From IMG/VR virus record IMGVR_UViG_2718218305_000005, positions 1 to 48,813 of that record: a stretch of DNA of 48,813 nucleotides; one strand, 5' to 3'. Of this stretch, positions 501 to 47,746 are shown one piece after another. The translations under genes were made by a program, and so were the position numbers. Numbering within the stretch: position 1 is the first letter of the stretch; the number at the start of each line of letters is the position of its first letter. The DNA comes from a virus (taxonomy: Duplodnaviria; Heunggongvirae; Uroviricota; Caudoviricetes). Below the pieces are notes generated by a model. The model was given only the letters and a program-made list of their open reading frames with translations, made no database searches and had not been told where the DNA came from.

Positions 501-606
501 GCAAGGCAACTAAGCCTGCATTAATGCCAACTTTTAGCGCACGGCTCTCTCCCAAGAGCCATTTCCCTGGACCGAATACAGGAATCGTACTCGGTCTTTT
601 TTTAAT
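501..606 (+). ncRNA. sdsR: sRNA SdsR (RyeB); its terminator hairpin coincides with the prophage att core
   Basis: Sequence GCAAGGCAACTAAGCCTGCATTAATGCCAAC...GGACCGAATACAGGAATCGTACTCGGTCTTTTTTT matches the recalled SdsR sequence; the yebY-pphA intergenic position is the known ryeA/ryeB locus. Confidence 0.55.
576..606 (+). repeat. attL core (direct repeat of 47716..47746)
   Basis: GAATACAGGAATCGTACTCGGTCTTTTTTTA versus GAATACAGGAATCGTGTTCGGTCTCTTTTTA at the right end; 15 bp exact then 3 mismatches. Confidence 0.6.
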
Positions 607-734
607 TGTATTTAAAATCAATCATTTGCAAGCGTCTCCCCGAAATTCCCCGAAATTTACTCGAATTTCTGTATTCCGGTCTTTTTTGGTTATATCACAA
701 CCAAAATACATTTAACAATCCATTTACGTTAAAA
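607..734. promoter_or_regulatory. attL phage arm with putative arm-type Int-binding repeats
   Basis: Tandem CCCCGAAATT (637..656), ACTCGAATTT, and an inverted core-like CTGTATTCCGGTC; similar motifs recur in the right arm. Confidence 0.3.
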
Positions 735-1811
735 TCAGAGCAGTAAGTACGTTTTTTCTCTCTCATCAAGATACATTTTTGTTGTCTTCTCCGATGTGTG
801 GCCAAGTAGACGCTGAGCAAATTCTTCTCCACATGTTTCTTTGTACAATCGTCCAGCCAGGCTTCTGATCTCGTGAAAAGTTGGTGGGTTTTCACTGAAC
901 TGGATACCTGTTAATTTTCTGGCTGCGACAAATTTTTTTGTCAGGCCATCCGGGTGAATGCTGCCGTCAGGGCTGTTTTTTCTAATCCCGGCACTGATTA
1001 GATAATCTCCCCGGCTTACCAGGCGGCACTGTTCAACTACTGTACCAAGCCGTAGACCAGCGACAGGAAGGCTGAGTGACAGGGGGATAGCAATCATCAT
1101 TCCTGTCTTAATTTGCCTGATGTGGAGACGATCATCATAAATATCACTAAACCGCATATTCGTTATGTCTTCGCGACGTTGTCCTGTTACAAGGGCTAAA
1201 TCCATAGCTAATGGGAACCATGCCGGAAGTTGATCTGCTGCCTCCCTGATGCAGTTGTATGTCTTTAGTTTCAGTCGTTCTCTTGTAACTACTATTTTCG
1301 GTGCTCTTGTTGGCGTTACTGGATTTTGAGATATACGTCCTTCAACAATGGCCTCACGAAACATATCAGACAACACAGAACGCATTGATCCTGCCATTGT
1401 GTTTTTCCCTCCTTCAATCCACAAATCAAGAAACTCGGCAATATGGCGAGTGGTTATTTCTGTCAGTAAAATCTCTCCCAATTTTTCTTTTATTGTCTCC
1501 AGTTGATTTACCCGAATTTTATAAGTATTTCTGGACACTTTTCTCCTTATAAGAATCGTTTTGTAACGTTCAATCCAGTCTGCCATAGTAAATGAGTCGA
1601 ACCCTTTAAGTTTTTCAATTAAGGCAGCAGGAGAGTAGTTTTTGTATATATAATGATTTGCTTCAATTGCCTGCGCGATTGCATCTCTTCTTGAAATTTT
1701 ACCTAGTGTAAATTCTTCTTTCGTCAGAGGGTTGCGCCAGTAATATGCTTTGTCCCTCCTTCGATATGTTAAGTTTTTAGGCAAATTGGGATCGTATTTT
1801 TTCCGCTGCAT
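735..1811 (-). CDS. int: Tyrosine integrase (lambda Int family)
   Basis: 358-aa ORF resembling lambda Int (N-terminal arm-binding region, C-terminal ...HELRSL...LLGH...Y catalytic region); adjacent to attL. Confidence 0.95.
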
Positions 1812-2064
1812 GTTTTAACTTCTCCAGTAACGGACTGTCTCTCCCTTGTCGCCCATTAGGCTGATGGTGTGTTATATCGGTATCAACCTTATTTGGGTTG
1901 ATATAGAAAGCTTCCGGAACCACCCTGTAACTCCTCCCGTGTAGTTCAGGTGCAGGATAAATGTTTCCATTCCTTGCCCATCGTCTCAGCGTTGATATTG
2001 ATGGTGGGTTATCCGGATATCTGAGTTTTCCCCACGTTTTGAGTGTCACAAGATTCATTGCCAT
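1777..2064 (-). CDS. xis: Excisionase (Xis-like)
   Basis: Small basic ORF directly upstream of and overlapping int; lambda Xis-like winged-helix sequence (TLRRWARNGNIYPAPE...); start codon uncertain. Confidence 0.7.
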   Translation of the reverse strand: MAMNLVTLKTWGKLRYPDNPPSISTLRRWARNGNIYPAPELHGRSYRVVPEAFYINPNKVDTDITHHQPNGRQGRDSPLLEKLKHAAEKIRSQFA

Positions 2065-2164
2065 ACCTCTTACGATATGACCGCCAGTAAATATACAGAA
2101 TACTGGCGGGTGTGGTTGATTTTTAATAATCAGCTATGAAGTTCTAATTTGTATATAATGCAAC

Positions 2165-2353
2165 TCACGAGGACAGAAGTTTCTCGCAATTAAAATTTAT
2201 CAGCTTTACTTTCTGCTCTCTGGACACGCCTGCTTCTTTTTTCCATGAGAGCATTTTTTCGCATTCTGATTTCGTTAATTTAGATTTTGAATATCTTGTC
2301 CAGTTAGTAGGAGTGCCACCTTCTTTTTCAATAGTGGCAGTTATTTTATACAT
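2165..2353 (-). CDS. Hypothetical small protein (Rac YdaC-like position)
   Basis: ORF immediately downstream of lar in the same operon; start set at the internal Met (MYKITAT) after the lar stop. Confidence 0.4.
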   Translation of the reverse strand: MYKITATIEKEGGTPTNWTRYSKSKLTKSECEKMLSWKKEAGVSREQKVKLINFNCEKLLSS

Positions 2354-2552
2354 GAACACCTCCATTATTATTTCCAGTAGTTCGTTTATTCCATCTTTCG
2401 AGTGCTTCTTTTTCACTTCCACCATAGCCAGTTCGGGATTCGCATCCGTTGCATTTTGCCCGGTAATATCCTGAAATTGCTTTCACCGTAACAGATGGAC
2501 AACCACAAAACGGACATGGTTTAACATCGTCATATCTCATAATTTTTGTCAT
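2346..2552 (-). CDS. lar: Restriction alleviation protein Lar/RalR family
   Basis: About 68 aa with CPFCG...C..C zinc-finger motifs typical of the Lar family; Rac-like position between recT and ydaC. Confidence 0.7.
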   Translation of the reverse strand: MTKIMRYDDVKPCPFCGCPSVTVKAISGYYRAKCNGCESRTGYGGSEKEALERWNKRTTGNNNGGVHV

Positions 2553-45554: not shown

Positions 45555-45941
45555 CCTGTTTACCTCTTTCTCAGGGAGTTTAGTCTCCAGGAAACCCGGG
45601 GCGGTTCAGGACAGGGTAATCACGCAGGTGGTGATACTGGATGCGGATAAAAAGCAGATACAGTGCGTGGTAAGACCGCTGCAAATCCTGCGTGCTGACG
45701 GGACGTGGGAAAATATTGGCGGGATGAAGTAACCCGACAGCTTCACAAAACCGGAGTCCGGCTCCGGTTTTTGTGTTGCAATGTCCGGGGGATATTTGTT
45801 AAGTAGATGATAGAGGAGCTAATTCAACAGGGAGATAAATTAATGCCGATAAATCTGACATCTTATTTGGGGTTACAGGGGGCGAAAGTTGTCCCGGCAG
45901 TTGTTTTTTCTAAAATTTAGTCTTGTTGGGGTAAATGACAT

Positions 45942-46133
45942 ATGCCATTGATAACATCCAGCATTTCATCAAATGTTGCTTTGCAGAGTATTGAAATATT
46001 ACGTGAAGCTGCCAGACAAAACCTGATAACGAAAGATATTACTATAAATGGGCAGAAAGTTGGTATTCATTATTATCAACGCCCTGACGTTTTTTTAGTT
46101 TCTGGTTGTAAGCTAGTGAATTGGTGGCACTGA
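45942..46133 (+). CDS. Hypothetical small protein upstream of nleC (possible effector remnant)
   Basis: 63-aa AT-rich ORF beginning MPLITSSISS, in the effector cargo region. Confidence 0.3.
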   Translation: MPLITSSISSNVALQSIEILREAARQNLITKDITINGQKVGIHYYQRPDVFLVSGCKLVNWWH

Positions 46134-46161
46134 AATATATAAAACCATATTAAGTATCAAT

Positions 46162-47148
46162 ATGAAAATTCCCGTTCTCCAACCTGGCTTCAACTTTTTT
46201 GCCCCTGCTGGATACTCTGCTGCCGTTGCTCCTAATCGTGCTGAAAATGCCTATGCGGATTACGTTTTGGATATAGGTAAGCGAATACCGCTTTCCGCAG
46301 CAGATTTAAGCAACGTATACGAAAGTGTAATTCGCGCCGTCCATGACAGCCGTAGCAGGCTCATCGATCAGCATACGGTCGATATGATTGGCAACACTGT
46401 ACTTGATGCGTTGAGCCGATCACAAACATTTCGTGATGCCGTAAGCTATGGCATTCATAATGAGGAGGTACACATTGGTTGCATTAAATACAGAAACGAA
46501 TACGAGCTTAACGGAGAATCTGCTATCAAAATTGATGATATTCAATCACTAACCTGTAACGAATTATATGGATACGATGTCGGGCAAGAACCAATTCTCC
46601 CCATTTGCGAGGCAGGAGAAAACGAGAACGAAGAGCCTTATGTCAGTTTTAGTGTTGCGCCAGATACTGATTCTTATGAGATGCCATCGTGGCAGGAAGG
46701 ACTGATTCACGAGATTATTCATCATGTTACTGGGGCCAGCGATCCATCTGGAGATAGTAATATAGAGCTAGGACCCACCGAGATTCACGCACGTCGTGTC
46801 GCTCAAGAGCTGGGATGGAGTGTTCCCGACTTCAAAGGATATGCAGAGCCAGAACGAGAAGCTCATCTTAGGTTACGTAACCTGAATGCCCTTCGACAGG
46901 CTGCCATGAGGCATGAAAAGAATGAGAGGGCTTTCTTCGAAAGACTGGGTACGATCAGTGACCGATATGAGGCGAGTCCTGATTTCACAGAGTATTCCGC
47001 TGTGTCTAACATAGGATACGGATTTATCCAGCAACATGATTTTCCAGGGGTGGCTATCGACGAGAATTTACAGGATGTAAATCAGATCCAACTGTATCAT
47101 GGTGCTCCTTATATCTTTACATTTGGGGATGTGGACAGACACAATTAG
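46162..47148 (+). CDS. nleC: Type III secretion effector NleC (zinc metalloprotease)
   Basis: 328-aa MKIPVLQPGFNFFAPAGYSAAVAPNRAENAYADYVLDIGKR... with HEIIHH zinc-binding motif; matches recalled NleC. Confidence 0.9.
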   Translation: MKIPVLQPGFNFFAPAGYSAAVAPNRAENAYADYVLDIGKRIPLSAADLSNVYESVIRAVHDSRSRLIDQHTVDMIGNTVLDALSRSQTFRDAVSYGIHNEEVHIGCIKYRNEYELNGESAIKIDDIQSLTCNELYGYDVGQEPILPICEAGENENEEPYVSFSVAPDTDSYEMPSWQEGLIHEIIHHVTGASDPSGDSNIELGPTEIHARRVAQELGWSVPDFKGYAEPEREAHLRLRNLNALRQAAMRHEKNERAFFERLGTISDRYEASPDFTEYSAVSNIGYGFIQQHDFPGVAIDENLQDVNQIQLYHGAPYIFTFGDVDRHN

Positions 47149-47519
47149 CGCTGATTCGTCTTTACAGTTACATAGGGTTACTACTCATAGATATTAACGG
47201 AGTTGATGATGGGCAATCGTGCAACATTGTATTGTATGTAAAGGCAGAGCCCCGAATTTTACTGTTGTAAGTGGGCCTGGCGGGAATGGTATCGCCAGCA
47301 TCATTGGCTTGGGTCCAGTAAAAAGAGACGCAGAAAGATGCACAATAGGCACTACGCGTCATGCATGGATTAGGTCGCTCATCATTTACACAGTACTGCT
47401 AAAAAATTATTAAGGAAAGCGCGGCACGTCGTATGCAAGAACGTGCCACGGCTGGCTGATGGACGTTCGATAGCGCGAGTTTGAATGAAAATCAGCCGGA
47501 GATGATTTTACATAATTGC

Positions 47520-47715
47520 TACGGAATTATTCAATACAGGAATTGCTTGTGTATGCATGGATTGACCTGAAATATTCCCGAAAATTTCTCTAAAAAACTC
47601 GAAAAAAATGGTAACTAATTGAATGTATTAATATGTAATAGTACGTGTTAGAGATTAAAAGATGAGCATGAATTTATTTAACACATTAATTCTAAAAGAT
47701 TTTGTTGTTTGTTGA
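47520..47715. promoter_or_regulatory. attR phage arm with putative arm-type Int-binding motifs
   Basis: TTCCCGAAAATTTCT, AACTCGAAAAAAAT, and a core-like copy AATACAGGAAT (47533..47543). Confidence 0.3.
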
Positions 47716-47746
47716 CGAATACAGGAATCGTGTTCGGTCTCTTTTT
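47716..47746 (+). repeat. attR core (direct repeat of 576..606)
   Basis: GAATACAGGAATCGTGTTCGGTCTCTTTTTA; 28 of 31 positions match the left copy. Confidence 0.6.

Follow-up and report, generated by a model that had tools for sequence, protein, structure and literature searches.

A lambdoid prophage at the terminator of the sdsR (ryeB) small RNA gene of Escherichia coli

Introduction

The locus encoding the small RNA (sRNA) SdsR (RyeB) and its antisense partner RyeA (SraC) was described as a hot spot for insertions in Salmonella by Balbontin, Figueroa-Bossi, Casadesus and Bossi (2008, J Bacteriol 190:4075), as cited in PMC7380047, PMC3333887 and PMC3603311. According to the first of these citing papers, ryeA expression decreases and ryeB expression increases when PhiW104 has integrated within the 23 bp at the end of ryeB. 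Bobay et al. 2013 list ryeB as a known phage target (PMC3603311), and one catalogued prophage bears the name 'Cfr111.52.RyeB' (PMC10111431). Beyond that name and a Yersinia prophage beside yebY, no E. coli-specific literature on prophages at sdsR or in the yebY–pphA interval was found. Here we analyse a prophage that occupies this locus in a stretch of Escherichia coli DNA of 48,813 nt (IMG/VR record IMGVR_UViG_2718218305_000005, positions 1 to 48,813; Caudoviricetes), referred to below as the window. A first-pass annotation of the window had called the locus an enterobacterial integration hot spot, in agreement with the work of Balbontin et al. as those citing papers present it.

As far as the citing papers describe them, PhiW104 and the Salmonella enterica hot-spot elements share with the present prophage an attachment site in the last ~23–31 bp of ryeB/sdsR, which is the terminator and lies internal to ryeA, as well as the outcome of integration, namely regeneration of ryeB and replacement of the 5′ part of ryeA. 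The present element differs in that its host is E. coli, its genome is a mosaic of Rac-like and Shiga toxin (Stx) phage-like parts, and its attachment sites share a 16-bp identical core and 37 nt of imperfect homology. A broader parallel is provided by P4, P22 and HP1, which integrate in the 3′ ends of tRNA or tmRNA genes; there too the 3′ end of a structured RNA gene is repeated in attP, which leaves the gene intact after integration. The target in our case is instead the terminator of an Hfq-dependent sRNA in a bidirectional locus, where one RNA cannot be regenerated without truncation of its antisense counterpart.

Two further systems are close to parts of the element. With the Int-Xis systems of lambda and HK022 it shares an integrase with an arm-binding domain and all catalytic residues (39% identity to Int of lambda and 42% to that of HK022), an xis gene that overlaps int, the location of int beside attP, and repeats in both arms of attP. 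In contrast to lambda, attB is the sdsR terminator rather than the gal-bio region, and the arm sites are candidates only. The early region resembles that of the Rac prophage of E. coli K-12, with ralR/RalA, recET, kilR-type genes and ydaT/U/V-like replication genes. Rac integrates at ttcA with a different integrase, and the late region of the present prophage, unlike that of Rac, is Stx-phage-like and carries nleC.

Integration at the sdsR terminator was thus already known from Balbontin et al. 2008, as represented in the papers citing that work, and the present case adds nothing conceptually new to it. The observation made in the first-pass annotation is confirmed and its interpretation supported; the case is correct and ordinary. 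What is added here is the exact reconstruction of the four attachment (att) sites, the frequency of the occupied site in E. coli, a survey of half-terminator alleles and a prediction concerning pphA. Neither the uncoupling of pphA nor the diversity of terminator alleles was found in the literature on the site, in which Balbontin et al. 2008 is represented by the papers that cite it.

Results and Discussion

Reconstruction of the four attachment sites

We conclude that a lambdoid phage has very probably integrated at the sdsR terminator, regenerating SdsR and splitting RyeA. The edges of the insert coincide with a two-copy direct repeat, which in the register 573–603/47716–47746 is identical at 28 of 31 positions. 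Imperfect 31-bp repeats had been reported at the borders of the element in the first-pass annotation; they are real and their right copy was given exactly, but the left copy (576–606) was shifted by 3 nt. A repeat finder extends the two copies to 37 nt (573–609 and 47716–47752; 86%, or 32/37, identical) at a spacing of 47,143 bp. Alignment by eye and by script reveals within them a perfectly matching 16-bp core, CGAATACAGGAATCGT, at 573–588 and 47716–47731. Since the first mismatching bases abut this core on either side, the crossover must lie inside it. Matches to the 31-mer with at most three mismatches are confined to these two sites in the window, and none arose in 100 dinucleotide shuffles. 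In attL (573–609, plus strand) the core is followed by an imperfect extension to 609; in attR (47716–47752, plus strand) it is followed by the 3′ half of the native sdsR terminator with its U tract, and a residual 7-bp hairpin is formed.

The empty site was reconstructed by joining window positions 300–588 to 47732–48100 with one copy of the core, and this 658-nt attB construct was searched against 5,426 complete E. coli genomes from RefSeq. It is present at 100% identity and as a single aligned piece in many chromosomes, including that of ATCC 8739, between yebY and pphA, and the site is uninterrupted in 5,191 of the genomes. To the right of the attR core the sequence matches the empty site at every position, and it agrees with the K-12 RyeA probe CGTGTTCGGTCTCTTTTTATCTG printed in PMC6610125. 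Therefore, the DNA left of the attL core and right of the attR core is chromosomal, everything between them is insert, and the repeats lie exactly at the junctions, as the alignment to an uninterrupted yebY-sdsR-pphA region called for in the first-pass annotation confirms.

The predicted attP (47150–47731 joined to 589–1300) is contiguous in the phage genome PP818812.1, with 93% identity across the junction and on into a 98%-identical integrase gene. attB, attP, attL and attR are all recovered. The prophage body spans positions 589–47715, and the phage genome with one copy of the core measures 47,143 bp. PP818812.1 ('Actinobacillus phage vB_Apl-pPE4') was deposited as a phage of Actinobacillus pleuropneumoniae. 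Given its 91–98% identity to the present Rac-like prophage of E. coli and its attP of the sdsR type, the assignment to that host looks doubtful.

Both arms of attP, which are contiguous in PP818812.1, carry repeats. In the P′ arm (589–734) there are tandem copies of TCCCCGAAAT (637–656), an inverted core-like copy (665–676) and a second copy of CGGTCTTTTTT (677–687), all of which are candidate binding sites for Int or accessory proteins. The P arm (47149–47715) contains CCCGAAAATT at 47577–47586 and a direct core-like copy, AATACAGGAAT, at 47533–47543. Two copies of the motif CCCGAAA(A)TT are present in P′ and one in P, and both arms have core-like copies. The two copies of CGGTCTTTTTT (592–602 and 677–687) lie 85 bp apart, and in a related prophage (L063) the interval between them is exactly deleted, the tandem TCCCCGAAAT repeats being thereby lost. 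A role of the second copy (662–687) as a back-up terminator was considered and rejected, as this segment shows no tendency to fold (−2.5 kcal/mol, z = 0); it is more likely a repeat to which a protein binds, or else a relic.

A chimeric SdsR with a rebuilt terminator

The SdsR gene at attL (501–603, plus strand) is composed of a bacterial part (501–588) and a phage-derived part (589–603). Its start, G501, was placed via primer BHI+11R of PMC6610125. The −10 region of the sigma-S promoter (488–494, plus strand) lies downstream of yebY and is intact, with C488 at −13 followed by TATTCT; a C at −13 was noted as a sigma-S promoter feature of sdsR in PMC3333887. Rfam model RF00111 (SdsR_RyeB) matches positions 504–603 on the plus strand over model positions 1–100, with a score of 113.1 bits against a gathering score of 38. 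The left repeat forms the 3′ part of this full-length match, which bears out its earlier identification as the SdsR terminator.

The host contributes the promoter and the first 88 nt of SdsR, and the phage the 15-nt 3′ end, i.e. the loop-distal half of the terminator and the U tract. The native sequence after the core, GTTCGGTCTCTTTTTATCTG, is found at attR, at every empty site and in the K-12 probe of PMC6610125. At attL the core is followed by ACTCGGTCTTTTTTTAATTG, which runs unbroken into phage attP DNA. Positions 589–603 differ from the native sequence and agree with the attP of the phage record, so that the phage origin of the SdsR 3′ end, proposed in the first-pass annotation, holds.

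The rebuilt terminator has a 10-bp stem in which A576·C590 is the sole non-canonical pair, followed by an uninterrupted U7 tail. With a predicted folding energy of −11.9 kcal/mol it is more stable than shuffled sequence (z = −2.6). The native terminator (−15.8 kcal/mol) has a G·U pair where the lysogen has A·C, and U5 after CUC; the hairpin left at attR reaches −7.8 kcal/mol. A simple terminator scan of the window misses the attL SdsR terminator because of the A·C mismatch.

Three stem alleles can be distinguished: the native GUGUUCGG with U5, the common phage allele GUAUUCGG with U7, and that of the present window, GUACUCGG, also with U7. The exact 54-nt attL with the A·C allele is rare, with 4 occurrences among the 5,426 complete E. 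coli genomes. The perfect stem, GTATTCGG, is found in all of the 17 closely related IMG/VR prophages and in PP818812.1, and the E. coli lysogen L004 carries the GTGTTCGGTTC allele. The mismatch, which the first-pass annotation had correctly observed, is therefore a recent variant and no design feature of this phage group.

Two further sdsR sequences differ from these alleles. In the viral contig L013 (4752–4770, minus strand) the SdsR stem is altered on both sides (GGACCGAAG ... GTCTTCGGTC) with pairing kept, a single compensatory case across the host/phage junction. In Shigella flexneri SFBU1023 (L003, 3700–3830) the sdsR copy beside the same integrase is degraded: its −10 region and 5′ end are altered, as are the two arms of its terminator. 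This copy scores 81 bits with Rfam, compared with 113 in the present window, and may be a decaying sRNA gene.

Splitting of RyeA and separation of pphA from sdsR

In order to place RyeA, the mapping data available for K-12 were projected onto the window. The ryeA fusion primer BHIA+10R of PMC6610125 (CGCTGACTTTATAGTCAACC), which ends at RyeA +10, begins at window position 47775, and RyeA +1 consequently falls at 47784 on the minus strand. As a cross-check, the RyeA 3′ ends determined by rapid amplification of cDNA ends (+263 to +270; PMC6610125) land at 379–372, in the U run of the RyeA terminator (372–410, minus strand), a bidirectional hairpin shared with yebY.

On these coordinates the 16-bp core corresponds to RyeA nt 54–69. 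The promoter, start and first ~53 nt of RyeA (47732–47797, minus strand; −10-like TGnTATGGT at 47792–47800) lie at attR, from where transcription is now directed into the phage P arm. The remainder of ~200 nt, placed by Rfam RF00101 and the mapping of PMC6610125 (372–588, minus strand; about nt 54/70 to 270), is at attL without its promoter, 47 kb from the start, and holds all of the sequence complementary to SdsR nt 1–72. The promoter and start are not contiguous with the RyeA body, and the splitting of RyeA anticipated in the first-pass annotation is borne out. A stable minus-strand hairpin followed by a U-rich stretch (47400–47470; −18.7 kcal/mol, z = −2.3) lies ~315–385 nt downstream of the RyeA start and could terminate the chimeric transcript that would run from the RyeA promoter into the phage.

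The right chromosomal flank contains pphA (47881–48537, plus strand; Pfam Metallophos, annotated as pphA in matching sequences), which encodes the phosphatase PrpA. The gene is mainly transcribed via read-through from the sdsR promoter (PMC6610125). As the insert separates the two by 47 kb, pphA is predicted to be uncoupled from the sdsR promoter in the lysogen, an addition to the interpretation given in the first-pass annotation.

Taken as a course of events, a temperate lambdoid phage very probably integrated by lambda-type, tyrosine recombinase-mediated site-specific recombination between its attP and an attB formed by the final ~30 bp of sdsR on the chromosome, with the crossover within the core. 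Because the phage attP itself mimics the loop, the 3′ stem arm and the U tract of sdsR, integration regenerates a complete SdsR gene at attL. The ryeA gene has its start towards pphA and extends across the core, and is therefore cut: its sigma-70 promoter and 5′ end stay at attR, reading into phage DNA, and the rest is left promoter-less at attL. RyeA levels would be expected to fall, and any read-through past the SdsR terminator would run antisense into int.

Some points weigh against this account or limit it. The 6–8 bp overlap region cannot be located within the 16-bp core from the sequence, and the arm-type sites are repeats alone and as such candidate binding sites. Rfam RF00101 (SraC_RyeA) gives a full-model match of 176 bits at attL (607–463, minus strand), which would naively be taken for an intact RyeA. 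The model, 145 nt in length, does not contain the mapped 5′ ~40–50 nt and spans the SdsR overlap and just beyond; since it lacks the true 5′ end, a full-length match at attL is no sign of an intact gene. The effect on SdsR may be small, given that deletion of the sraC promoter resulted in only ~1.5-fold more SdsR (Frohlich et al., PMC3333887). All that is said here on RNA levels in the present strain is transferred from work on K-12 and Salmonella. Finally, the frameshift in the tape-measure gene discussed below could be a sequencing error.

Distribution of the occupied site

The same sdsR-attL-int junction as in the window is present in 227 of the 5,426 complete E. coli genomes. The site is interrupted in ~234 of them, and nearly all occupants consequently use the present integrase. 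The exact prophage of the window is absent from these 5,426 genomes, the best matches being 95–97% identical over 80–90% of either end.

Among species representatives in GTDB only two, E. coli ECMA0423 and Shigella flexneri SFBU1023, carry a close (94%-identical) integrase, a scan that is informative on close relatives and silent on distant genera. In both, the integrase gene lies beside SdsR/RyeA. Of 119 IMG/VR contigs containing the sdsR 3′ motif, 81 carry a homologue of the integrase at 49–99.7% identity, and in most of these 81 it ends 57–170 bp from the motif. The DNA past the U tract is very diverse among the 119 contigs. To judge from these sequences, the data fit a diversified integrase lineage that has retained the sdsR terminator as its target.

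In E. coli 2013C-3342 (NZ_CP027766.1) attL is at ~1.815 Mb on the minus strand and the attR/pphA end at ~0.70 Mb on the plus strand, so that over 1 Mb separates the two ends, which face in opposite directions. The ends of the sdsR prophage in E. coli 2015C-4498 are similarly distant and opposed. This arrangement suggests a large chromosomal inversion through prophage-prophage recombination in the two strains.

Gene content of the prophage

The insert is a mosaic lambdoid prophage with a Rac-like early region and a late region like that of Stx phages, albeit without stx. The left chromosomal flank contains yebY (1–342, plus strand), an open reading frame (ORF) corresponding to a YebY family protein in empty-site matches and in a related lysogen. 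Next to attL is the gene for a lambda-family tyrosine integrase of 358 amino acids (735–1811, minus strand) with Pfam arm-binding, central and catalytic domains, in which the residues R212, K235, H313, R316, H338 and Y347 are all kept as in lambda Int. It is followed by the excisionase gene (1777–2064, minus strand; Pfam PF07825, with excisionase annotation in relatives).

The early region includes DUF1187/ralR with the RalA sRNA, recT, recE, a helix-turn-helix repressor gene, ydaT, a ydaU-like gene and a gene for a DnaC-like loader. The late region, which resembles that of Stx-converting phages, includes Q, the STnc100 and AgvB sRNAs, a NanS-type esterase gene, holin and endolysin. Further genes encode the terminase, portal, a protease-capsid fusion, the tape measure, J, Lom and a tail fibre with collagen repeats. 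At the right end of the prophage is nleC (46162–47148), encoding a type III secretion system effector protease (Peptidase_M85) that degrades NF-kB p65; its presence apparently implies an attaching/effacing E. coli host. Related prophages with NleC are present at the sdsR site and at other sites.

Between the lysis and terminase genes there is a two-gene module of low G+C content (0.38) at 21724–23483, with DUF6575/DUF7226 domains. Its products match both PD-T4-10 anti-phage proteins weakly (E = 1e-5 and 3e-4), and the module is possibly a prophage-borne defence system. Further RNA genes of the prophage (2169–2347, 14222–14392 and 16617–17016) comprise the RalA antitoxin sRNA, a sok-type antitoxin, STnc100 and AgvB (anti-GcvB). 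ARAGORN calls no tRNA where Rfam gives a partial tRNA-like match (37 bits), which is probably a decayed tRNA.

Alternative explanations

The best supported alternative is that the element is a fixed, degraded remnant which neither excises nor forms particles, its att repeats being a historical scar; we regard this as a serious possibility, only slightly less than evenly balanced. All lysis, packaging, head and tail modules are present, with two possible defects among them. The tape-measure gene is split into overlapping ORFs (33377–34813 and 34698–36092), of which one matches the N-terminal and the other the C-terminal half of tape-measure families, and the frame changes at ~34734–34763, near runs of G. 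The change either reflects a genuine frameshift that inactivates the gene or arose as an error in sequencing. The small ORF just after the tail fibre gene contains an IS3-family insertion sequence (IS) of 1,310 bp (44299–45608) similar to IS629/IS1203. Its ends are inverted repeats, TGAACCGCCCCGGGTTTCCTGGAGAG, and it contains two transposase ORFs together with an ALIL frameshift pseudoknot (45157–45273). In addition, a relative has somewhat longer recT and recE genes. With its split tape-measure gene and IS insertion the prophage may be defective for particle formation. Against the remnant stand a full-length int with every catalytic residue, the presence of xis, identical 16-bp cores and the completeness of the major phage modules. 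Defective lambdoid prophages of enterohaemorrhagic E. coli are moreover known to excise. Judged by its sequence, excision of the prophage is plausible, because int, xis and both att sites look intact. The question of a remnant bears on present-day activity alone, and either answer is compatible with integration of a phage at the sdsR terminator.

It is unlikely, in our estimate, that RyeA is still functional, with a phage promoter (read-through from int or pL, or a promoter in the P′ arm) replacing the lost one. Minus-strand transcription of int does indeed proceed towards attL, and the 146 bp between the end of the gene and the core contain only a weak A/T-rich hairpin. In a repressed lysogen, however, int is normally poorly expressed, and a consensus scan of the minus strand over positions 300–2200 detected no sigma-70-like promoter. 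Any such transcript would also differ from RyeA in its 5′ end and regulation. In the review of Balbontin et al. 2008 given in PMC7380047, ryeA transcription is described as decreased rather than abolished, which would be in line with a replacement promoter.

That the phage inserted just downstream of an unaltered sdsR, the left repeat being wholly bacterial and the sRNA untouched, might be concluded from the full-length Rfam score of SdsR at attL. This is highly improbable and is refuted by the distribution of the two 3′ ends: native GTTCGGTCTCTTTTTATCTG at attR and at every empty site, and ACTCGGTCTTTTTTTAATTG at attL, contiguous with phage attP DNA. Least tenable of all, and likewise refuted, is a chance likeness of the repeats, or an unrelated duplicated terminator, in an island acquired by transposition or homologous recombination: taken alone, an exact repeat of 16 nt would be no great surprise in 48.8 kb (~0.3 expected, by our estimate), but the 31-mer did not recur in the shuffles, empty site and attP were both recovered exactly, and the same junction recurs in 227 genomes beside the same integrase.

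Implications for E. coli lysogens

Integration at the sdsR terminator is seen here in a clean and fully reconstructable case, in which a phage attaches at the terminator of an Hfq-dependent sRNA. A prophage is present at sdsR in about 4% of complete E. coli genomes, almost always with an integrase of one lineage. In such strains SdsR is a host-phage chimera, the RyeA annotated by Rfam has no promoter, and the regulation of pphA deduced from K-12 is predicted not to apply. For annotation this creates a pitfall, in that promoter-less RyeA remnants in lysogens score as full-length Rfam matches.

Tentatively, lysogeny by this phage group might amount to a regulatory conversion of the sigma-S circuit in attaching/effacing E. 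coli, which we hold to be possible rather than probable. It would comprise three joint changes. Firstly, RyeA, an antitoxin-like antisense RNA, would be removed together with its transcriptional interference; transcription of ryeA interferes with that of sdsR in the strains studied (PMC6610125). Secondly, the phage-borne stem allele, here the rare A·C variant, and the longer U tract could alter termination efficiency and Hfq binding. Thirdly, the PphA phosphatase gene would be cut from its main promoter, and read-through from SdsR would become antisense to int. If these effects are sizeable, a phage that carries NleC would also reprogram the stationary-phase sRNA regulon, the targets of which include tolC, ompD and mutS.

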